Shown: positions 12,427 through 37,487 of the stretch, piece after piece
Numbering within the stretch: the stretch's first letter is position 1
Layout: each line of letters starts with the position of its first letter
From: Candidatus Heteroscillospira sp.
GTDB taxonomy: Bacteria; Bacillota; Clostridia; Oscillospirales; Oscillospiraceae
Length of the DNA stretch: 64,000 nucleotides
Direction of reading: 5' to 3'
NCBI GenBank assembly: GCA_050943935.1
Contig: JBMNQC010000004.1
Span: 107,759 to 171,758, forward strand
Position numbers and translations under genes: made by a program
Notes under the pieces: model-generated
Database searches by the model: none
What the model was told of the DNA's origin: nothing
The model's input: only the letters and a program-made list of their open reading frames with translations

Positions 12427-12939
12427 TCAGTCCAGCGCTCTCGCGGCGAGGGCGCGGCACGGATAATAAAATACGAAAACAAACGGGGTGGAATACAGCG
12501 TCTGTAAAAGCGCCACCCTCAGCATAGCCATAAGCTCGCCGTCGTACAGCACCAGCACCCGCAGGGCCTGGGCCAGGGCGCACAGCAGCAGGGCGCATAG
12601 GCAGGCGAAAAAGAACGCCACCGGCCGGCGGCTGAGGAGGAATCTCTCCCCCGCCGTAGCAAGAAAGCCTATGAAAGGCATGAGTATGGTAAACAGCACC
12701 TGCGTCTCGGCAAACATGGCGTCCGAGAGCATGCCGCAGGCCAGACCGAAGCCCATGCCCCACCAGCCGCCCTGGAGCATCCCCAGGGCCACCGGAAATA
12801 TGGGCAGTATCATGGCCCGCACGCCGAACAGGCTTATACGGGACAGTACCGTCTCCTGTACCAGCAGGGCCAGCAGCATTATGCCGGAATAGATAAGAGC
12901 GCGGCGGAGCTTATCCAGATCTATTACTTCAAGCAGCAT
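12427..12939 (-). CDS. mreD: rod shape-determining protein MreD
   Basis: Polytopic membrane protein directly after mreC. Start trimmed to MLLEVIDLDK (12939). Confidence 0.75.
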   Translation of the reverse strand: MLLEVIDLDKLRRALIYSGIMLLALLVQETVLSRISLFGVRAMILPIFPVALGMLQGGWWGMGFGLACGMLSDAMFAETQVLFTILMPFIGFLATAGERFLLSRRPVAFFFACLCALLLCALAQALRVLVLYDGELMAMLRVALLQTLYSTPFVFVFYYPCRALAARALD

Positions 12940-12949
12940 TGCCCTCTCC

Positions 12950-13798
12950 TTACTCCACGACCTCAAAGGCCGTGACCACAAACACCTGGGATACCGTATC
13001 CAGGTCGCAGCTGGGGCGCAGCACTCCATAGGGCATCTGGCCGCCCGCCTCGGTGAGTACGGACTCTATATAGCCCACCACCAGCCCCTGGGGGAAGGCT
13101 CCGCCCCGTCCGGAGGTGAGCACCACATCCTCCTCAAGGAGGCTGGTGCCCTCAGTCATGTGAAAGAGCTTGCATCTGCCCTCCTGCATCAGGGCGAAAT
13201 CGCCTATGGCCATGGCCGCGTTTCCGGCCTCGCCAACCAGCACGCCCACGTTTGTGTCCACATCTATGACGGTTTTGACATTTGCCCAGTTGTCGCCCAG
13301 CTCGGAGATCTGTCCCACCAGTTCACCTGCCTCAGTCACCACGGGCATGCCCACGGCTATGCCGGCGCTCTCGCCCTTGCTGATGGTGAAGCTGCTGGAC
13401 CAGTTGGAGCTGTTCCAGTTCACCACGCGGGCGGACTCAAAGGTGAAGTCGGAGTGCTTCTGCTTCAGGTTCAGCAGCTCCCGGAGCTTCTCGTTCTCCT
13501 CCACAGCCTCGGCGCCTCTTCTGGCCTCCTCCTGTGCCTCGGTCAGCTGGGCCTTCAGCGCCTCGTTCTCAGCCTGGAGCTTGTCATATTCATAGATATA
13601 GCCGTACAGGCTCTCGAACCAGTCTATCACCGTACTGACGGCGCCCTGAAGCGGAGCCTTTATAACGCCGGCGGTGTTTGTAACAACGCCCGCCTTGCCC
13701 TGCAGAAAATGCGCGCTGACGCCCACGATGAGCACCACACACAGCACCATGGCCAGCAGCCGCGTTCCGTATCTGCGGAGAAATTTTTTGAAATTCAA
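12950..13798 (-). CDS. mreC: rod shape-determining protein MreC
   Basis: 282 aa. N-terminal TM segment, a coiled coil (ENEALKAQLTEAQEE) and beta-barrel C-terminal domains. Confidence 0.9.
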   Translation of the reverse strand: MNFKKFLRRYGTRLLAMVLCVVLIVGVSAHFLQGKAGVVTNTAGVIKAPLQGAVSTVIDWFESLYGYIYEYDKLQAENEALKAQLTEAQEEARRGAEAVEENEKLRELLNLKQKHSDFTFESARVVNWNSSNWSSSFTISKGESAGIAVGMPVVTEAGELVGQISELGDNWANVKTVIDVDTNVGVLVGEAGNAAMAIGDFALMQEGRCKLFHMTEGTSLLEEDVVLTSGRGGAFPQGLVVGYIESVLTEAGGQMPYGVLRPSCDLDTVSQVFVVTAFEVVE

Positions 13799-14367
13799 AT
13801 CAAATCAACACCCAATCTGCCCAATATGACGCCCAGCCGGCACAGCGGCAGGCCCATCACGTTATAGTAATCTCCGGTTATCCCGCTTACGAAATAACCG
13901 CCCTTACCCTGTATGCCGTAGGCTCCGGCCTTGTCCATACATTCACCCGAGTCCGCGTAGGCGCTTATCTCCCGCCCGGTCATCTGGCGGAAGCGGACGG
14001 CGGTCTCCTCGTATTCGCACACGCTCTGCCCCCGGCATTTCACCGCAAGCCCGGTGAACACCCGGTGCTCCCGCCCGGAGAGACTGCCGAGCATGGACAC
14101 GGCCTCCTCCCGCGTACGGGGCTTGCCCAGTATCTTTCCCTCCGCCGCCACAACGGTGTCGGCGGCTATTATCAGGTCCTCCGGGCCGTATAGGGCGGCC
14201 ACCTCGGAGCATTTGCCTGCGGCCAGAGCCATAACGGTCTGTTCGGGGCCTGCTCCGGGAGGAATTATCTCCTCGCCCACGGCGGGGTGTATGGTCAGGT
14301 TCTTTACTCCCAGCATTTCCAGCAGCTCACGCCGCCGGGGTGAGCCGGAGGCCAGTATAATACGCAT
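13795..14367 (-). CDS. maf: Maf-like nucleoside triphosphate pyrophosphatase
   Basis: True start MRIILASGSPRRRELL at 14367. The upstream extension of the tracked ORF overlaps the U32 gene and is not coding. Confidence 0.9.
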   Translation of the reverse strand: MRIILASGSPRRRELLEMLGVKNLTIHPAVGEEIIPPGAGPEQTVMALAAGKCSEVAALYGPEDLIIAADTVVAAEGKILGKPRTREEAVSMLGSLSGREHRVFTGLAVKCRGQSVCEYEETAVRFRQMTGREISAYADSGECMDKAGAYGIQGKGGYFVSGITGDYYNVMGLPLCRLGVILGRLGVDLI

Positions 14368-14369
14368 TG

Positions 14370-16466
14370 TCACTTCACTCCCCGGTAATACAGTCCGCGG
14401 GTAATATTGGTAGCGCTGTAATCCGTCTGGCCCATGTAGGCCTGAGCGGTGAGCACGCACTCCCGTGCGCTCTCCGTGGTGAACAGGAGCCTCGCGCCCC
14501 AGAGGCCTATGCTCTCGTAATCGCCCCGCTTGTCGGCCAGATACAGCCGGTGGGCGTTGAGCACCACGTTGCGGCAGCCAAACTCCCTTATGACGGGAAA
14601 CACGCTGCCGCGTCGGTCGGCAAGCTGGGGATTGTTCTCGCAGTTGCATCTGCCCGCGCTGTTTTTGATGATGCACTGGTCGGACACCATGGCCGGCAGC
14701 CGGCCGTAGACTATCATCTCGGTGTCCAGAGGCTTTATCATGTCTCTTATCTGGCTCAGCCGCAGCTCAAAGCTGGCGGTAGCGGATATAAGTCCCGCGC
14801 AGCGGAGCATCTCCAGAGCGTGGGAGTTGTAGGCGTTCAGCCCGAAGTCGCCCCGCACGGCAAAGCCCAGCTGGCGGCAGATGGCGATATGGCCCAGATT
14901 GCCCACCACCACCTCGGTTATGCCCAGGGATTTTGCCCTGTGCAGCAGCTGGCGCACCGTCTCGCTCTCCGTATCGGTGATAACCCGGGGCAGCACGGCG
15001 GCAACGGCGGCTCCCTCCTGAATGAATGGGGCTATACGCCGGGCGCTCTCGTCGCTGCCCAGCATTTCCAGGGGGACATAGAGGTAATTGGGACGGGTAG
15101 CGGCCAGCTCGGGGCTGAGCTGCTCCGGACGTGTCACCTGATATATGAGCCGCGGCGCGCCGGAGGCCGCTCCGGACAGGGGCGCCGTGGGAAAATCCCC
15201 AAGGGTGCGCTGAGGCGGATTTTTCCGCATAGCCGTCAGCCTAGATATAAGCTCCCGGCGCATCTCATTCAGAGCGGAAGCCGGCAGATACAGCCCCGGG
15301 TCCACCTTGCAGTTTATCTCCACGCCGGAATATGGAGTGCCGCCGGTCTTATAAAGCTGCTCTCCCACGGCCTGTCCGGTCAGCTCTCTGGCTGCGGCGG
15401 CCTGGGGCACGCTTCCCTCGGCTGTGGCGTGATTTCCGTCCATGTCCTCAACGGCGAAGCGGGCGCGCTTGCCTGCCTCAACCACGGCATAGAATTTCAC
15501 CGGCACCCTGCGCAACTCGCTGTTTATGTAGCTCCTGTGGGCTTCGGCAAACATGCGCTCCATGGCGCCCCTGTCCGGCTCCTCCCGGACGCCGAACATA
15601 TCCGGTCCCACCTTGCCGGTGAAATAGCCGTCTGTAAAGCCCTGGCGTGAGAAGGCCAGAGTGAGCCTGTCCATATCCGCCTGAGTGGGAGCCTTTTTGT
15701 TTTTCACGGCGTTTGCGTAAATCTCGGTAACCACCGCGGCGTACTCGGGTCGCTTTGCCCGGCCCTCTATCTTGGCGCAGGCCACACCTATGCGCTCCAG
15801 CTCCTCAACATAGCGTAGCAGGCAGTTGTCCTTCAGGCTCATGGGCTTGTTGTCCATGCGCCCGCCCAGGCTGTAATCCATGCGGCAGGTCTGGGCGCAC
15901 ATGCCCCGGTTGCCGCTGTGTCCGCCTATGAGGGCGCTCATATAGCACTGGCCGGAGTGGCAGAAGCACAGAGCGCCGTGGACGAACACCTCTATCTCCA
16001 CGGGGGAGCGGGCGCATATGGCCTCTATCTGCTTCATATTCAGCTCTCTGGCCAGCACCACGCGCTTCATGCCCAGCTCGGCCGCGGCCAGCACGCCGTC
16101 CAGATTGTGGACGCTCATCTGAGTGCTGGCGTGCAGGGGCATATCCGGCAGCAGGCTTCGCAGCACCCGGGCGAGGCCCAGATCCTGCACCAGTATGGCG
16201 TCCGCGCCTATGTCGGCGGCGCGCACGGCAAGCTCGGAGGCCGCTCTCAGCTCCCTGTCAGAGGCCAGGGTGTTCAGGGTCACATAGACCTTGCAGCCCC
16301 GCACCCGGCAGTAGCGCACAGCGTCGGCAAACTCCTCGTCTGTGAAATTTTTTGCGCCCTGGCGGGCGTTAAAGCCGCCGAAGCCCATATATACGGCATC
16401 CGCACCGCTCTGCACGGCGGCAATTATGCCCTCGGGGGAGCCGGCGGGAGAAAGGATTTCAAGCAT
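14370..16466 (-). CDS. peptidase U32 family protein (long form)
   Basis: 698 aa. MLEILSPAGSPEGIIAAVQSGADAVYMGFGGFNAR N-terminus typical of the U32/PrtC family. Confidence 0.85.
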   Translation of the reverse strand: MLEILSPAGSPEGIIAAVQSGADAVYMGFGGFNARQGAKNFTDEEFADAVRYCRVRGCKVYVTLNTLASDRELRAASELAVRAADIGADAILVQDLGLARVLRSLLPDMPLHASTQMSVHNLDGVLAAAELGMKRVVLARELNMKQIEAICARSPVEIEVFVHGALCFCHSGQCYMSALIGGHSGNRGMCAQTCRMDYSLGGRMDNKPMSLKDNCLLRYVEELERIGVACAKIEGRAKRPEYAAVVTEIYANAVKNKKAPTQADMDRLTLAFSRQGFTDGYFTGKVGPDMFGVREEPDRGAMERMFAEAHRSYINSELRRVPVKFYAVVEAGKRARFAVEDMDGNHATAEGSVPQAAAARELTGQAVGEQLYKTGGTPYSGVEINCKVDPGLYLPASALNEMRRELISRLTAMRKNPPQRTLGDFPTAPLSGAASGAPRLIYQVTRPEQLSPELAATRPNYLYVPLEMLGSDESARRIAPFIQEGAAVAAVLPRVITDTESETVRQLLHRAKSLGITEVVVGNLGHIAICRQLGFAVRGDFGLNAYNSHALEMLRCAGLISATASFELRLSQIRDMIKPLDTEMIVYGRLPAMVSDQCIIKNSAGRCNCENNPQLADRRGSVFPVIREFGCRNVVLNAHRLYLADKRGDYESIGLWGARLLFTTESARECVLTAQAYMGQTDYSATNITRGLYYRGVK

Positions 16467-29895: not shown

Positions 29896-29903
29896 CCTGT
29901 TGG
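29896..29903 (+). repeat. left junction core CCTGTTGG (attL side)
   Basis: Identical octamer at 37480-37487. The left half-hairpin AAAAACCACCCCC precedes it. Confidence 0.7.
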
Positions 29904-30025
29904 CAGTCGTCCATAAAACAGGCAAATGAACAACACATCGTTTATGGGTGACTGTCATACGGGGTTAGGTGAATGAAATATGCTGGACATGGTTGAAATC
30001 AACCGTGTCCAGCATATTTTTTCGC

Positions 30026-30862
30026 TTATTTGTGTTTCCCTTTTCCGTGGGTCATGCTTGCTTTTCCCCGCTGGTTCATCGGATTTTTCAAGTGTTTGGA
30101 CAGCTTCAAAATCTCAATCAAGGTCACAAACTGCTCCATTGAGATGGCGTCATAGTCCACACCGTACTGCCGAAGAAAAATCCTTGCCCGCTTTTCATCG
30201 TCGCTGCCCTCATAGTTCATGGCCTCTTGCAGTTGCTTTTGGGCTTCAAGGGCAACGGATGGGGCGTCTGCCGTGGTAGTATCGTCCCGGTGAGCCTCCC
30301 GAATGTCACGGAGTATGGTCGTCAAATCCTCAGAGATCACATGACCGAAGTATTCATCCTCCCGCACCTGCGCCAGTTCCAAAGTCCGCAGATGCAGATC
30401 GTCAGCGTTTCCCTCCTGCTTCAACAGCACCATTTGACGGACAGATTCAAGAACAACGTTCATGTCGTTGATCCTCATATCCGCAATCCGATCCACGAAA
30501 ATCTCACCGTCCAGCATCATGCGCTGAAAATCCTTGTGGCATATAATTTCTGACAGCAGCCGCTTATTGAACTTTCCTTCTTTCAAAACATCAATCGCAT
30601 CATCACTCAAATGCAGAGCGTTCAACTCTGCGTTTGGGTGATTTTTTTGTTCCGTCATGCCCAGCAGATAATCCGTGGATACACTGTAGAACTTCGCCAG
30701 CGTCACGATAGCAAAGAGACTGATGTCCTTGAAATCGTCGTTTTCATATTTGCCCAGAGCCGACTTGGAAAGCCCGGTCTGCTCCGCAAGCTGTTCCAGC
30801 GTCAGTCTGCGCTCCACCCGCAAATCCTTCAATTTTTCCTGTATGGTTAAGGTCGTATTCAT
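30026..30862 (-). CDS. XRE-family HTH regulator with long C-terminal domain
   Basis: 278 aa. N-terminal HTH LTLEQLAEQTGLSKSALGKYEND. Confidence 0.8.
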   Translation of the reverse strand: MNTTLTIQEKLKDLRVERRLTLEQLAEQTGLSKSALGKYENDDFKDISLFAIVTLAKFYSVSTDYLLGMTEQKNHPNAELNALHLSDDAIDVLKEGKFNKRLLSEIICHKDFQRMMLDGEIFVDRIADMRINDMNVVLESVRQMVLLKQEGNADDLHLRTLELAQVREDEYFGHVISEDLTTILRDIREAHRDDTTTADAPSVALEAQKQLQEAMNYEGSDDEKRARIFLRQYGVDYDAISMEQFVTLIEILKLSKHLKNPMNQRGKASMTHGKGKHK

Positions 30863-30987
30863 ACCGTGTCCCCCTTGCGCCCGTTGGTATTGTTCGTTAT
30901 TTCCATTATATCACAGCTTGTCCATAAGCGTGGAAATATTCGCTTTTGGATGCCAATTTCCGACCTTTTGGATATACGGGAACGGTC

Positions 30988-31016
30988 ATATATTTTCGCT
31001 AAAATGTAATTGTCAA
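30988..31016 (-). promoter_or_regulatory. putative promoter of the XRE gene
   Basis: Minus strand: TTGACA (complement of 31011-31016), 17-nt spacer, ATATAT (complement of 30988-30993). Flanked by the 9/10 inverted repeat ACGGTCATAT / ACATGACCGT. Confidence 0.45.
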
Positions 31017-31526
31017 CAGACATTGCAGCTTGAAAACCACATGACCGTCCGAATGAGATATGCCGACTGGTGAAGCACCGCCAAGACCTTACCTCTGGTC
31101 ACCGTGACCAGAGGTGACTTCGGGACAAATTGTCCCAAAGCTAAGAGCGTGCCAAGGCCGGGGATACGCCGGGGTGAGATTCCCGGGCAGGAACGACGTT
31201 CGGGAAGAACGGCACTTAAAAATGCAACTCAAAATCAAGCCATGTGAAATCAGCGAACATTCCGCAATCTGAGTATTGCTAACCACACCAAAGAGCGTTG
31301 CGCCGAACAGCGCACACGGTACGGCATCCGGCGTGGATGTTCGCCGTTTCGCATGACTTCACACAAAACTGTGAAACCGAAAGACCGCCCTACTGGACAG
31401 GGCATCATGGGCGGCAATCTGAGCGGAAATTCACTTTCAGAAAAACAACGCTCCACAGCGAACAGAGCTTGCCGTTGGGCATATCCGGTTCACTGCGGAG
31501 ACTACGAAAAAAGGATGATTTTCAGT

Positions 31527-32370
<844 letters not shown>

Positions 32371-32388
32371 AGGGGGGGGATTTACAGG

Positions 32389-32404
32389 AATGTGTACCTT
32401 TCTG
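32389..32404 (+). repeat. inverted repeat, left arm (AATGTGTACCTTTCTG)
   Basis: Exact reverse complement of 32523-32538. Confidence 0.9.
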
Positions 32405-32522
32405 TAAATCATCACAGAAATTTAAACACAGTTATTATAGCACAACGCAACAAGATTTTCTATATAAAAATGGCGAAATCATTCACGATTTAGTGAACAG
32501 GAAAATGTGCGTTTTCACCTTG

Positions 32523-32538
32523 CAGAAAGGTACACATT
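32523..32538 (-). repeat. inverted repeat, right arm (CAGAAAGGTACACATT)
   Basis: Exact reverse complement of 32389-32404. Ends 21 nt before the ATG at 32559. Confidence 0.9.
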
Positions 32539-32558
32539 TTTGTTGGGGGACATGCACC

Positions 32559-33338
32559 ATGAAGATTGTAGCAATACTGTTCGGCTACGCGATCATTTTT
32601 GTGTTTTTCTTCTGGCTGGCCAAAACGATTGGCCGCGCAGTGAATCGGAAGAAAACTGCAACAGCCTTCCGCAGCCATGCTGTGGATCGCGCCAGCGTAA
32701 ATAAGGCGTCAAGTTTCAGCGACATTCAGAGCATTTTCAAGTCAGTGATCTCGTGCAAGCGCTGCGGCGCCAAACTTCGGGTTCCCTGCAACAGGGGAAT
32801 CATTGAGGTGAACTGTCCTAAATGTGGAAATAAATTTCGGCACGACAGCGGGGCAAAGGATAAGGCAGCAGCAAAATCGTCCACGCCCACAAATCCACCC
32901 AAATCATCTAAATCCACCGACGAGTTGGACAACTACCGGCCAGGCGGAGCCTTGCGAAGGGAAATCAACCCAAATCCCACCAGCGATCGGGAAGCGCTTT
33001 TGAACCTCATCGCCACCTGGGCAGCTGCCTGTATAAGAACCCAGCTTTTTGACCGCACCAGCGGCCTTTGGCAGATGGTGCAAAAGCGCGGGGGCAGTCT
33101 CCAGTCGGCGAGTATAAACTTTGCTGCCTGTCAGGTGAATTTCGATTTCCGTTTTTCCAATGCTCCGGCACCGGGACACACTTTCCAATACAGCTACAAT
33201 GAGATAACCAACGAAGAAGGAAAAGCCCCCATCTTCCTCAACAATATGGAGATTGAATGGGTACGTTGCGCTGCGCTGTCCCACTTGGCAGACACGGCCC
33301 CCGGCGCTAAGATGAAAAACGGACGTATCTGGTATTAA
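32559..33338 (+). CDS. hypothetical membrane-anchored zinc-ribbon protein
   Basis: N-terminal TM helix IVAILFGYAIIFVFFFWLA, then CKRCGAKLRVPC...NCPKCGNKF (CxxC...CxxC). Alternative start at 32505 lies inside the inverted-repeat-bounded segment. Confidence 0.6.
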   Translation: MKIVAILFGYAIIFVFFFWLAKTIGRAVNRKKTATAFRSHAVDRASVNKASSFSDIQSIFKSVISCKRCGAKLRVPCNRGIIEVNCPKCGNKFRHDSGAKDKAAAKSSTPTNPPKSSKSTDELDNYRPGGALRREINPNPTSDREALLNLIATWAAACIRTQLFDRTSGLWQMVQKRGGSLQSASINFAACQVNFDFRFSNAPAPGHTFQYSYNEITNEEGKAPIFLNNMEIEWVRCAALSHLADTAPGAKMKNGRIWY

Positions 33339-33398
33339 AAAGCAAGCCTGCTGAATTTACAATTCGGAGGACTAAAACAAAAGGAGAGGAAATGAATT

Positions 33399-33572
33399 AT
33401 GAATTCCAGCGATTACAACAAATACCTTGCATCCATTAAGGCGGCCAATGACTGCGAGGCATCTCGCGCACGGGAGCTTTTGAGGCAAATTCAGGCAGAC
33501 ATGATTGCGCGGTATGGCTCGGGCGATAGGGATGTGGATTACTTAATCCGTCAGTTTCGCTACAATGTATAA
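33399..33572 (+). CDS. hypothetical 57-aa protein (below the ORF-track cut-off)
   Basis: Hand translation MNSSDYNKYLASIKAANDCEASRARELLRQIQADMIARYGSGDRDVDYLIRQFRYNV. AAGGAGAGGA lies 8 nt upstream. Tight spacing to both neighbours. Confidence 0.5.
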   Translation: MNSSDYNKYLASIKAANDCEASRARELLRQIQADMIARYGSGDRDVDYLIRQFRYNV

Positions 33573-33585
33573 GGGGGCGTGAAAC

Positions 33586-34839
33586 GTGGCTGCAAAGTGT
33601 GATTTGTGCGGTGGCGCACTTATTATGGGCGCCGACGGCCAAAGCGCCACATGCAAAACCTGCGGGATGGAGTATTCTGTTGAACGGGTGCGGGAACTGA
33701 TGGCCTTGGATACAGTTGCGGTGGCCCCCCAAGCCGACAGGCAGGAGCAAGCGACGACGTGCGTGCTGTTCGATGACTATCATGCGGTGCTACTGGAGTT
33801 GTTTGAAGAGCACACAGGCATCTCTGCGGCGGATATGTCGCTTGATGAAGAGGAATTGGAACACGCTGTATTCGACATGATCCCTCTTGCATCAAAAGTC
33901 TCGACAATCGACTTTGGGGATTATGCTATTATAGCGACGACAAAGGGCGTGATGACCAAAGTGCTGGATGCAGCCATGCGCAAAACGCTCTCCCGTTATA
34001 AAAAGGGACAGAGAGGTGCAAAGCTTTGGTGCCGCATATTCCTTTCTACACATTATAGAGACGAATTTATCCAGTTTGTTTTACCAGACAATGTGCTTTG
34101 GGAGGTCTCAGGGCTTTCAGAAGGGACACTGGAACAGGCCGTGGCCGAGCTGCAGCAGGAGCTCCCCTTCGGAATTGCGCTAAAGGGGCGAAACGATATC
34201 GTGCAGAATACCGCGCCGACGCCCGCATTGCAGGAAGATGTGCTTGAAGCGACCTGGGAGGAAACTTCAGATGCCGATGTTGCTGCCCAACCACCAGAAA
34301 TGTTTCATATGACAGGCAAATGCGAGTATTACGGTTCTGTAATCAGAGGGGAGGAATCAAGCGCAAATTTTGATGTGGTAAAAGCTATTGCGTTATGTGA
34401 AAAAGCTGACGCAGCCTATAATAGAAATAGCATAGGCAAAGCAATAAGTTACCTCGAAGAGGCCTTGAGATATGATGCGGACAATTATATAGTATGGAAC
34501 AAATTGGGTAGAGCTTATAGGGCATTAAGCTATCTGGACGAAGCAAGAAAGTGTTACCAAAAGGCACTTGAAATAAAACCTGGTGCTATTGATGTGATTG
34601 CAAATATTGGGGTTCTCGAGTTTTCATGTAATAATTATCAGCTTGCGTATCAATATTGCAAACAAGCTTTTGAAGTAGGAGGAGCAACACGAGCAGATAA
34701 CGCAGTATACGCAGCGAACTACGCCATGATGATAGCTAAAATTGGAGATAAGGAAGAAGCTCTTAGAGTATTAGAAATAGCACGAAAAAGAGGGTATCGC
34801 AATTACACTACACTCAAAAGAATGATAAGACAAAACTAA
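33586..34839 (+). CDS. hypothetical zinc-ribbon / TPR-repeat protein
   Basis: 417 aa (GTG start). N-terminal CDLCGG...CKTCGMEY zinc ribbon. C-terminal TPR-like repeats (AISYLEEALRYDADNYIVWNKLGRAYRALSYLDEARKCYQKALEIKP...). Confidence 0.65.
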   Translation: MAAKCDLCGGALIMGADGQSATCKTCGMEYSVERVRELMALDTVAVAPQADRQEQATTCVLFDDYHAVLLELFEEHTGISAADMSLDEEELEHAVFDMIPLASKVSTIDFGDYAIIATTKGVMTKVLDAAMRKTLSRYKKGQRGAKLWCRIFLSTHYRDEFIQFVLPDNVLWEVSGLSEGTLEQAVAELQQELPFGIALKGRNDIVQNTAPTPALQEDVLEATWEETSDADVAAQPPEMFHMTGKCEYYGSVIRGEESSANFDVVKAIALCEKADAAYNRNSIGKAISYLEEALRYDADNYIVWNKLGRAYRALSYLDEARKCYQKALEIKPGAIDVIANIGVLEFSCNNYQLAYQYCKQAFEVGGATRADNAVYAANYAMMIAKIGDKEEALRVLEIARKRGYRNYTTLKRMIRQN

Positions 34840-34849
34840 ATAAAAAAAC

Positions 34850-34893
34850 AAGCCAAAAGCGGCCAACCGTAACAAGTTGGTTTCTTTTGGCTT
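34850..34893 (+). terminator. intrinsic terminator after the TPR gene
   Basis: AAGCCAAAAG...CTTTTGGCTT hairpin, followed by a T-rich stretch. Confidence 0.6.
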
Positions 34894-34984
34894 ACTTATT
34901 TTTAAGAAGAGGCACCGCCATGAGGCTAAAATCAGCACCGATGTCAAGCCCAATTGAGATGTAGAAACGTCGTTCGTTTCTCAT
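34892..34984 (-). pseudogene. 30-codon stub of a RuvC/DEDD-type (IS110-like?) transposase N-terminus
   Basis: Hand translation MRNERRFYISIGLDIGADFSLMAVPLLKNK*, with GAAGGA 7 nt upstream. The IGLDIG motif resembles the first catalytic-Asp motif of RuvC-like/DEDD enzymes. Confidence 0.35.
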
Positions 34985-35178
34985 ATTCTATCCTTCTTCC
35001 CGTTAATGGTTACAGGGATTTCTTTTTGAAATAGTGTGATATATCCTCGTACGGAATCCCGAAATAGACAAATAGACCCCAACCGGCCAAATCATGAAAC
35101 ATAACTGTGGGGATAGACTGATCTCAGTATGATTTCATGACTGGCTTTTGTCGATGAGAGCCTGTTGCCCAGAAGGCT

Positions 35179-35472
35179 TTGCCAGTGAAGCTGTCTTTAT
35201 CCCTTAGTGTAATTATACTAAGGGCGCACTTCTATCTGGCCCGCCGGGAATTGAAACCCTATCTGGAGGAGGGCGGCAAGCTGCCTGTGGCCCAATGGGA
35301 GGCAGAGCGTACCCGGCTGAAACAGGAGTATGCGGCGGAGAGCGAGGCATACAAGCCCATTCTTGCCGATTTGAAAAGCTTGCGGCAAATCCAGTACGCC
35401 GTCGATAGCGCCCGCCATGAGCAGGAGCGCAGCGAACAGGCGCAGAACCGAAAATACGAACAGGAACGATGA
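35179..35472 (+). pseudogene. probable C-terminal remnant of a mobilisation/relaxase gene
   Basis: The coding-like part starts just after the hairpin CCCTTAGTGTAATTATACTAAGGG. A Glu/Arg/Gln-rich coiled tail sits upstream of the TnpW-like gene, as in clostridial Tn4451-like elements. Confidence 0.35.
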
Positions 35473-35487
35473 AAGGAGAAACCGACT

Positions 35488-37424
<1,937 letters not shown>

Positions 37425-37479
37425 CCCAAAGGCCATGCCATTCCCTGTTAAATACGGATTACTGTTTTATTAGCCGCCG

Positions 37480-37487
37480 CCTGTTGG
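37480..37487 (+). repeat. right junction core CCTGTTGG (attR side)
   Basis: Identical to 29896-29903. Followed by GGGGGTGGTTTTTT, which complements AAAAACCACCCCC at 29886-29898. Confidence 0.7.

Follow-up and report, generated by a model that had tools for sequence, protein, structure and literature searches.

What is carried behind the small DNA invertase in the middle of a 64,000-nucleotide stretch of Candidatus Heteroscillospira sp. (contig JBMNQC010000004.1, positions 107,759 to 171,758 of the forward strand; this whole stretch is hereafter called the window), and what could such a cargo be for? The first-pass annotation, made from the letters of this DNA, had described three tightly spaced, co-oriented open reading frames (ORFs) of 259, 57 and 417 amino acids (aa), here called genes 1, 2 and 3, and all three are indeed present on the plus strand, each with a ribosome-binding site (RBS; Table 1). 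We find that a small mobilisable Tn4451-like integrative element of anaerobic gut and digester Clostridia carries the three genes as its constant cargo, and that gene 3 appears, from sequence comparison, to be built around a domain related to ribosomal protein uL16. The explanation which we favour as a whole, with a probability of roughly 0.4, is that this invertase-gated cargo would form a membrane-tethered, translation-mimicking intracellular module. All positions refer to the 64-kb window; labels L001 to L043 denote copies of the element or relative loci, and P numbers denote relative proteins.

The uL16-like domain and the family of gene 3

The middle part of gene 3, which had been put down as an uncharacterised domain, reaches the gathering score of the Pfam family Ribosomal_L16 (PF00252, 27.9 bits), scoring 28.1 bits when the full protein is used and 30.9 bits when the region is excised, and its relatives score 49-55 bits on the same model. 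Compared with solved uL16 chains from the PDB, gene 3 aligns to uL16 residues 20-128 at E 9e-7; a profile built from nine sequences of the domain reaches E 4e-19 against PDB uL16, and the same profile aligned with the host's own L16 in hhalign gives a probability of 99.1% (E 1.7e-18). The alignment covers the FGxYGL strand, the EAxR..L.R helix, the GxKxWxRxF strand and the PGxVLxExxG strand, with the basic N-terminal tail absent and a gap of 15 residues at the RMGKGKG loop. On the rplP equivalog model TIGR01164 the protein obtains 35.5 bits, far from the cut-off of 76.85 that goes with a full-length ribosomal L16, and the host genome retains a normal rplP on another contig, to which the gene 3 domain is 25% identical. 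Such low identity points to an old paralogue and not to a recent capture, and the recent capture of host rplP or tuf was accordingly rejected as an origin. Judged from these comparisons, this part of gene 3 is genuinely homologous to the globular body of uL16, and is neither a captured fragment nor a ribosomal protein. The statement made at first pass that none of the three genes matches a known family was therefore upheld for genes 1 and 2 and overturned for the middle of gene 3.

The domain is preceded by a four-cysteine zinc ribbon, a segment which on its own is common to about 140 further unrelated proteins and behaves as a promiscuous head module of many Clostridia proteins. The genome's own call of gene 3 (P0004, 404 aa) begins at Met14 and drops the first CxxC of the ribbon (33586-33624), which is kept in all relatives; since the relatives keep the full ribbon, the GTG start adopted here is taken to be the right one. 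Behind the domain follows a conserved acidic tryptophan motif with the consensus (E/D)(I/V)L(E/D/N)A.W, found at the extreme C-terminus in two of the relatives (P0031 and P0032), which looks like a portable docking peptide.

Relatives of gene 3 were sought by running HMMER exhaustively over 1.84 billion cluster representatives with residues 1-245 as the query. Only eight proteins matched at E ≤ 1e-10, two of them being the window protein itself and a truncated remnant of the L001 type. The ribbon and uL16-like core is constant across the family and the C-terminal module varies: a barrel resembling domain II (D2) of EF-Tu in P0005, P0028, P0029 and P0033, an ABC domain in P0031 and P0032, whose Walker A, signature and Walker B motifs, as read from the sequences, are degenerate, and tetratricopeptide repeats (TPR) in the window; stand-alone uL16-like proteins of 139-149 aa also occur (P0065, P0108 and P0116). 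In a literature search directed at L16-like domains of non-ribosomal proteins, we came across no account of a uL16 body that serves outside the ribosome. As far as sequence can tell, the zinc-ribbon/uL16-like proteins are a previously undescribed, non-ribosomal uL16-like family with interchangeable C-terminal modules.

The relatives with the D2-type barrel, which are 31-39% identical, occupy a stable chromosomal locus composed of argF, the ribbon-uL16-like-D2 gene, a gene for a 442-aa ADP-ribosylglycohydrolase and ruvCAB in several assemblies, including a metagenome-assembled genome (MAG) labelled Candidatus Ruminococcus gallistercoris. Wherever this locus was inspected (L016:8001-10458, L018:1452-3881 and L033-L036), the 442-aa ADP-ribosylglycohydrolase gene directly follows the gene 3 relative, between argF and ruvC. 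The ABC-variant gene, in turn, is preceded at L013:162-2470 and L015:2-2037 by a gene for a membrane protein with N-terminal CVGH(V/I)DS.GN.Y repeats, a linker of PPKQT repeats and a C-terminal ribbon. The ribbon of this transmembrane (TM), proline- and lysine-linker protein resembles that of gene 1. A uL16-like protein is in this way repeatedly found paired with a ribbon-bearing membrane protein, and the exact trio is confined to the element described below.

The carrier element, its decay and its promoter switch

An intact relative of the element, L040, was reached through an exact-sequence look-up of cluster members and sits on a 91-kb NCBI MAG contig. Over about 9 kb it carries an XRE regulator (minus strand), a 76-aa helix-turn-helix (HTH) protein, the 220-aa Hin-type invertase, a promoter flanked by inverted repeats, genes 1, 2 and 3, a DUF3847 gene, a 444-aa MobA/MobL relaxase, a 71-aa ORF and a 576-aa large serine recombinase with DUF4368, in this order. 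The succession of invertase, inverted repeats and genes 1 to 3 is the same in all close copies found (the window, L001/L002, L040, L041, L042 and L043), and four genomes have the element at four chromosomal places, namely downstream of ruvX at the ruvX terminator (window), between rpoC and rpsL (L001), near nrdD (L040) and among trp genes (L042). Taken together, the intact L040 and these four insertion contexts display the features of a Tn4451-like element, which are a large serine recombinase with DUF4368, a Mob relaxase and variable sites. That the genes lie on a mobile island, behind a recombinase and inverted repeats, had been proposed at first pass, and this is borne out by the Resolvase match, the repeats, the lowered G+C content and the differing sites.

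Table 1. Features of the window in and around the three-gene cassette (window positions; IME, integrative mobilisable element; IR, inverted repeat; res, residues)
Feature	Position	Strand	Details
Decayed copy of Tn4451-like IME, 7.6 kb	29901..37482		blastn to L040 and composition; G+C below flanks
XRE-type HTH regulator, 278 aa	30026..30862	-	Pfam HTH_3 2.8e-11; equivalent position in L040 and L042
Small HTH protein, 76 aa, DUF6471/Clr5-like (weak match), before invertase	31527..31757	+	76-aa gene called in L040 and L042
Small serine recombinase / DNA invertase, 220 aa	31708..32370	+	Resolvase 4.1e-29; NCBIfam master DNA invertase Mpi family 3.1e-14
Putative invertible promoter segment	32384..32543		IRs 32384-32407 and 32520-32543 (24 nt, 88% complementary), 112-bp spacer
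Gene 1, 259 aa, membrane-anchored	32559..33338	+	TM res 3-22, Zn ribbon res 65-90, Pro/Ser/Lys linker res 98-120, alpha/beta C-terminal domain res 121-259
Gene 2, 57 aa, soluble, helical, no family	33399..33572	+	RBS AAAGGAGAGG
Gene 3, 417 aa, chimera of Zn ribbon, uL16-like domain, acidic Trp motif and foreign TPR tail	33586..34839	+	GTG start, GGGGG RBS
Gene 3 four-Cys zinc ribbon, res 1-40	33586..33705	+	CxxC...CxxC
Gene 3 uL16-like domain, res 100-200	33883..34185	+	homologous to uL16 res ~20-128
Conserved acidic Trp motif EDVLEATWEETS	34228..34263	+	from alignment; letters EDVLEATWEE
Foreign replacement segment, 916 bp, G+C ~0.39	34313..35228		TPR end of gene 3 (34313-34839), terminator-like hairpin 34861-34882, non-coding junk
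MobA/MobL relaxase C-terminal remnant	35229..35472	+	within ORF 35179-35472; aligns from L040 12859, inside the 444-aa MobA_MobL gene
Large serine recombinase, probably inactive	35792..37424	+	Resolvase, Recombinase, Zn_ribbon_recom; DUF4368 tail in other frame, separate ORF 37221-37424

The window copy aligns to L040 by blastn in two blocks, the first joining window positions 29901-34312 to L040 6270-10688 (96%) and the second 35229-37482 to 12859-15118 (94.5%). Measured against the same Tn4451-like features, it retains only a remnant of the relaxase and has its large recombinase split by a frameshift; because the relaxase is mostly lost and the recombinase is frameshifted, the window element is a decayed, probably immobile copy. 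A perfect 18-nt inverted repeat (TCCAGCATCATGCGCTGA) also links the XRE gene (30510-30527) to the 5' part of the large serine recombinase gene (35881-35898) over 5.3 kb, and could be due to chance or be a relic of recombination.

Between the two aligned blocks lies the 916-bp segment listed in Table 1, in place of 2170 bp of the intact element that encode the EF-Tu-D2-like terminus of gene 3, DUF3847 and the greater part of the relaxase. Collinearity of the window with L007 and L001 extends through ...TTTCATATGA (34312), beyond which the three diverge; all other copies of the element run on into a 90-aa EF-Tu domain-II-like barrel, and the TPR continuation occurs in the window type only. In its native form the barrel, which corresponds to EF-Tu residues ~210-300, matches EF-Tu D2 (PF03144) at E 2.5e-6 to 2.3e-7, with 28.3 bits in P0005 and 31.6 bits in P0028 against a gathering score of 30.3, and NCBIfam EF-Tu models at 4e-7 (1.5e-12 in P0028). 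It is missing from the window copy, where TPR takes over at 34313 and residues 272-411 match TPR_2 (4e-11), TPR_1 (2.1e-10) and TPR_16 (1.2e-9) in Pfam. Plasmid and phage collections gave no match to the insert or to gene 3, and the source of the insert was not found in plasmids. An assembly chimera was considered as the origin of the TPR fusion and rejected, as another run provides a contig across the junction (~3% divergence) and yet another has identical pieces on either side. The TPR tail of the window's gene 3 is a secondary foreign replacement, a point which had been missed at first pass, where the N-terminal ribbon and the TPR repeats had themselves been correctly described.

Decay has taken a different course in L001, where gene 3 has suffered two deletions, each bounded by short direct repeats (CGACG; GGGCGCA; L001:9028-9516), which took out the uL16-like domain and the D2 barrel and spared the ribbon and genes 1 and 2; L001 and L002 represent the same lineage, decaying differently. 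The cassette of the window may itself no longer work, since, apart from genes 1 and 2, only the front half of gene 3 is native to it. It could even be regarded as a non-functional relic, an accidental in-frame TPR fusion on an immobilised fossil element with its promoter facing away, and the foreign segment in place of the native gene 3 end, DUF3847 and relaxase, the frameshifted integrase, the promoter pointing away from the genes and the microhomology deletions in the L001 lineage all agree with such a view; however, each of the three ORFs is uninterrupted, with full conservation of genes 1 and 2, and the finding of the TPR junction in another run at ~3% divergence, with identical pieces in a further one, implies that the chimera has persisted and spread; we judge a relic unlikely.

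With regard to the switch, the nearest NCBIfam models of the invertase are XisF and the Mpi master invertase. The best promoter within the repeat-flanked segment (TAGAAA-17-TG-TATAAT) lies on the minus strand, from 32462 to 32434, and faces away from gene 1. The segment has the composition of an inverton: an adjacent invertase, inverted repeats and a promoter between them. Its orientation is the same, apparently OFF, in five of the five assembled copies that bear the cargo. A search for junction patterns in 400 genomes of the family matched only the window's own right junction, the repeats being symmetric. Phase variation of the cargo is plausible on this arrangement.

In four runs (X1-X4), the summed contig depth of window positions 31434-32400, which hold the HTH and invertase genes, amounts to as much as ~1000, compared with 25 for the cargo, and one metagenome contig departs from the window sequence immediately after the left repeat (32405). 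The invertase and switch module thus appears to be widespread with other cargoes. Between L040, L042, L001 and the window, synonymous divergence (dS) is 0.01-0.03 in the cargo (32559-34311) and 0.26-0.31 in the invertase (31708-32370). A cargo dS so far below that of the adjacent invertase suggests recent exchange of the cassette among related backbones, and the differing histories of cargo and invertase backbone point to recombination at or near the inverted repeats; such exchange would also fit the high and heterogeneous contig depth of the HTH and invertase genes and the contig that departs after the left repeat.

A cassette that moves among related backbones, as these dS values suggest, could serve the IME and not the host, whether as an addiction or toxin-antitoxin module, as an exclusion function or as a transfer accessory. 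The trio is the sole non-backbone content of a minimal IME, placed between the regulatory and invertase genes on one side and the mob genes on the other, and its layout is that of a small protein next to a larger one; no toxin, antitoxin or exclusion family was matched, however, and the window and L001 keep genes 1 and 2 while their mobility genes rot, with L001 shedding gene 3 domains as well, which a strict addiction module would hardly tolerate. We consider an element-selfish role improbable.

Genes 1 and 2

The layout of gene 1 noted at first pass, with a single TM segment, a CxxC...CxxC ribbon and a Pro/Ser/Lys linker, was confirmed. Its N-terminal hydrophobic helix has a top 19-residue Kyte-Doolittle mean of 2.67, starting at residue 3, and is followed by a basic stretch, the ribbon, the linker and a C-terminal domain of ~140 aa. 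From the single N-terminal TM segment and the basic stretch behind it, the protein is predicted to be almost wholly cytoplasmic, and a role as a surface or secreted antigen was rejected on this predicted topology.

Homologues of gene 1 form six clusters in 5.8 billion proteins, one of which is 90% identical and belongs to the same element, the other five being 50-55% identical. Strong conservation is seen in the C-terminal 140 residues of these five diverged clusters, the N-terminus being variable and in one instance replaced. Searches of 185,579 species genomes (GTDB), of JGI metagenomes, of IMG/VR and of 300 genomes from the same family, among them four from the same genus, gave no full-length relative; in those genome searches only the ribbon matched, to a ubiquitous host protein of ~130 aa with TM and ribbon. 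In genome G000 (contig C14, L009:1495-1887, minus strand) a 130-aa protein has two hydrophobic helices and a C-terminal ribbon (FTCPSCKNILRVPRGKGKIQITCPKCGQRF), and its gene lies just upstream of an rsmG-like gene. Such a ribbon is present in 264 of 301 genomes of the family, and that of gene 1 belongs to the same class.

AlphaFold2 modelled the C-terminal domain of gene 1 with a predicted local distance difference test (pLDDT) score of ~75-90 when given a seven-sequence alignment. The fold search on AlphaFold models that had been named at first pass as a route to these proteins proved unproductive here, Foldseek against PDB and BFVD giving a best E of 0.09, and a gene 1 profile found no match among PDB sequences. 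Genes 1 and 2 have no match in PHROGs, PADLOC or NCBIfam, gene 2 has none in Pfam, PHROGs or NCBIfam, and neither the C-terminal domain of gene 1 nor gene 2 has a known match by sequence or fold. Gene 2 was called by annotation pipelines on 13 other contigs, and 55 of its 57 residues are identical across all other copies.

Selection was assessed from the ratio of nonsynonymous to synonymous divergence (dN/dS) between copies of the element, which is 0.05-0.11 for the invertase, 0-0.17 for gene 2 and ~0.4 for gene 1, with one pair at 1.6 on ten changes. The purifying selection looked for at first pass is thereby seen in genes 1 and 2, where divergence suffices, and the front half of gene 3 has too few changes. 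Conservation of the gene 3 architecture, and of the C-terminal domain of gene 1 itself, reaches down to 34-55% identity.

The diverged homologues of gene 1 adjoin neither an invertase nor relatives of gene 2 or gene 3. In L003 (L003:1-6387; the homologues in L003 and L004 are 52-55% identical) the gene lies between those for a large TPR-repeat protein and a 1008-aa TIR-TPR protein (TIR_2 7.4e-12), and in L004-L006 (L004:3233-3690) it stands behind the same TPR gene, here reduced to N- and C-terminal remnants. A PDB search with the neighbouring protein P0178 gave no match.

Surroundings of this kind bring up an anti-phage or abortive-infection module, in which gene 3 would be a decoy or guard showing uL16- and EF-Tu-like surfaces so as to sense a phage factor directed against the translation machinery, gene 1 the membrane effector and gene 2 a small regulator or antitoxin. 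The large TPR and TIR-TPR proteins beside a 52%-identical gene 1 homologue would suit it, as would a phase-gated cargo on a mobile element, the fact that all C-terminal modules of the gene 3 family (D2, dead ABC and TPR) are interaction domains, and the pairing of the chromosomal relatives with an ADP-ribosylglycohydrolase, an enzyme type which reverses ADP-ribosylation. That pairing, however, belongs to a stable neighbourhood of housekeeping arg and ruv genes and not to a defence island. Searches of phages, IMG/VR and plasmids yielded no relatives, gene 1 offers one TM segment and no recognisable effector fold, and PADLOC-DB v2 gave nothing beyond PDC-M71B, hit by the TPR part at 20.6 bits, and a hit of the ribbon at 12.5 bits. 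In Pfam, PADLOC, PHROGs and NCBIfam the window proteins fell into none of the known families of defence, resistance or toxin proteins. We regard this possibility as doubtful, and the first-pass suggestion of a defence or surface function finds no support in PADLOC, PHROG or viral matches or in the predicted topology of gene 1. The neighbourhood census gave a divided answer to the question whether the three genes always travel together: the trio is linked behind the invertase in all close copies, and distant homologues of genes 1 and 3 are linked neither to each other nor to an invertase.

A proposed function and comparison with known systems

The reading which we favour, that of a membrane-tethered, translation-mimicking module, supposes that the cassette makes an intracellular complex held at the membrane. 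Gene 3 would be its recognition subunit, consisting of a zinc ribbon, a stripped-down uL16 body and, natively, the EF-Tu domain-II barrel, and the cytoplasm-facing gene 1 protein with its novel C-terminal domain would, together with the 57-aa protein, act as a membrane partner or effector of gene 3. On the ribosome, uL16 is in contact with the elbow of the tRNA, EF-Tu domain II with its acceptor end, and both face the A-site aminoacyl-tRNA. As the ribosomal surfaces of both domains meet this aminoacyl-tRNA, we propose that gene 3 may bind the normal recogniser of that translation surface, candidate ligands being aminoacyl-tRNA or an agent directed at this surface, whether a factor, a phage protein, a toxin or a drug. 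A translation mimic would be costly, so that its transcription would be left to the invertible promoter, apparently OFF in all assembled copies. A more specific version, in which the uL16-like proteins mimic the tRNA-binding face of the ribosomal A site and the native protein with its membrane partner forms a phase-switchable system that senses or neutralises an anti-translation agent (a phage factor, an ADP-ribosylating toxin or an antibiotic of the uL16 site), is put forward as a speculative proposal; if correct, it would amount to a previously undescribed form of defence or protection.

A number of observations weigh against the favoured reading. The uL16-like domain has a net charge of +2, compared with +7 over the same span of the host L16, and with the charge mostly lost and the tail and loop that contact rRNA and tRNA gone, RNA binding is not assured. 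A single-sequence AlphaFold2 model of gene 3 has a pLDDT of 43.7, with values below 50 across residues 38-265, and is too poor for a check of the fold; dN/dS in the front half of gene 3 is 0.2-1.0 on fewer than ten changes, a divergence too low for a firm value. No linkage exists between the distant relatives of gene 1 and those of gene 3, and the window's own gene 3 is a secondary chimera on a decaying element. The opposite orientation of the switch was not found among the five assembled copies or in assembler contigs, which are uninformative here, and no RNA runs are listed among those carrying the cargo genes.

Tn4451-like mobilisable transposons, to which the carrier belongs, are known to carry resistance genes, and gene 3 could on that account be a target mimic which sequesters or displaces an antibiotic or bacteriocin acting at the uL16/A-site tRNA elbow, for example the orthosomycins used in livestock, in a logic akin to that of ribosome-protecting translation-factor paralogues. 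Cargo words are present in at least 24 runs, from digesters and bioreactors and also from chicken, pig, sheep and bovine gut, faeces and wastewater, the latter sources being in keeping with a protection of this type. Costly resistance genes on mobile elements have been found to be gated by invertible promoters, so far in Bacteroidales only (PMC8748976), avilamycin contacts uL16 (PMC10497419), and variation in L16 has been linked to avilamycin resistance (PMC8908370). The helix aligned to the avilamycin-related part of L16 is the best conserved piece of the domain, a residue mapping which, however, combines a remote alignment with provisional residue numbers. The case is circumstantial: there is no homology to a named resistance or ribosomal-protection family in NCBIfam or Pfam and no known resistance protein is similar, the membrane protein and its 57-aa partner are left without a role, and chromosomal relatives beside an ADP-ribosylglycohydrolase are not in keeping with it. 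Inhibitor protection of this kind is, in our view, quite improbable. The pay-off of the module could be phage defence, protection from inhibitors or a selfish element function.

Should gene 3 indeed bind components of translation, it would illustrate the mimicry of ribosomal proteins by mobile elements, and could provide a handle on agents that target the uL16/A-site corner in gut anaerobes. The chromosomal pairing with an ADP-ribosylglycohydrolase represents a concrete biochemical lead, and the element would extend invertase-gated mobile cargo to Clostridia-type hosts.

Several known systems offer points of comparison. With uL16 itself (PF00252, TIGR01164), residues ~100-200 of gene 3 share the globular body formed by residues ~20-128; unlike uL16, the gene 3 domain is near-neutral, lacks the tail and loop, and is part of a multidomain protein, behind a zinc ribbon, on a mobile element. 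EF-G-like ribosomal protection proteins are translation-factor paralogues used off the ribosome cycle, and the likeness to these is one of logic, a paralogue of the core translation apparatus serving as an accessory gene on a mobile element; there is no sequence relation, gene 3 reuses isolated domains, with EF-Tu domain II deprived of its GTPase, and any activity of gene 3 is hypothetical. The clostridial mobilisable transposons Tn4451 and Tn4453 possess the large serine recombinase TnpX with DUF4368 and the Mob relaxase TnpZ. L040 resembles them in its ~9 kb size, its 576-aa serine recombinase with DUF4368, its MobA/MobL relaxase, its small accessory ORFs and its varied sites, and differs in that the cargo of the L040 type is three genes and an invertase switch, not catP, the window copy having in addition lost its relaxase and acquired a frameshifted recombinase.

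Integrative conjugative elements (ICEs) of Bacteroidales carry classes of invertible-promoter-regulated resistance cargo, known as IP-ARG (Yan, Hall & Jiang 2022, PMC8748976). In contrast with these, the host of the window is a Clostridia-type Firmicute, the carrier a small IME and not an ICE, the recombinase a serine recombinase, the cargo devoid of any known resistance or glycan gene, and inversion putative; in common with them, an invertase gene lies beside a repeat-flanked promoter that faces or opposes an accessory operon on an integrative element. What is familiar is therefore the arrangement, with accessory genes on a small mobilisable element behind an invertase switch, and what is new is its content.

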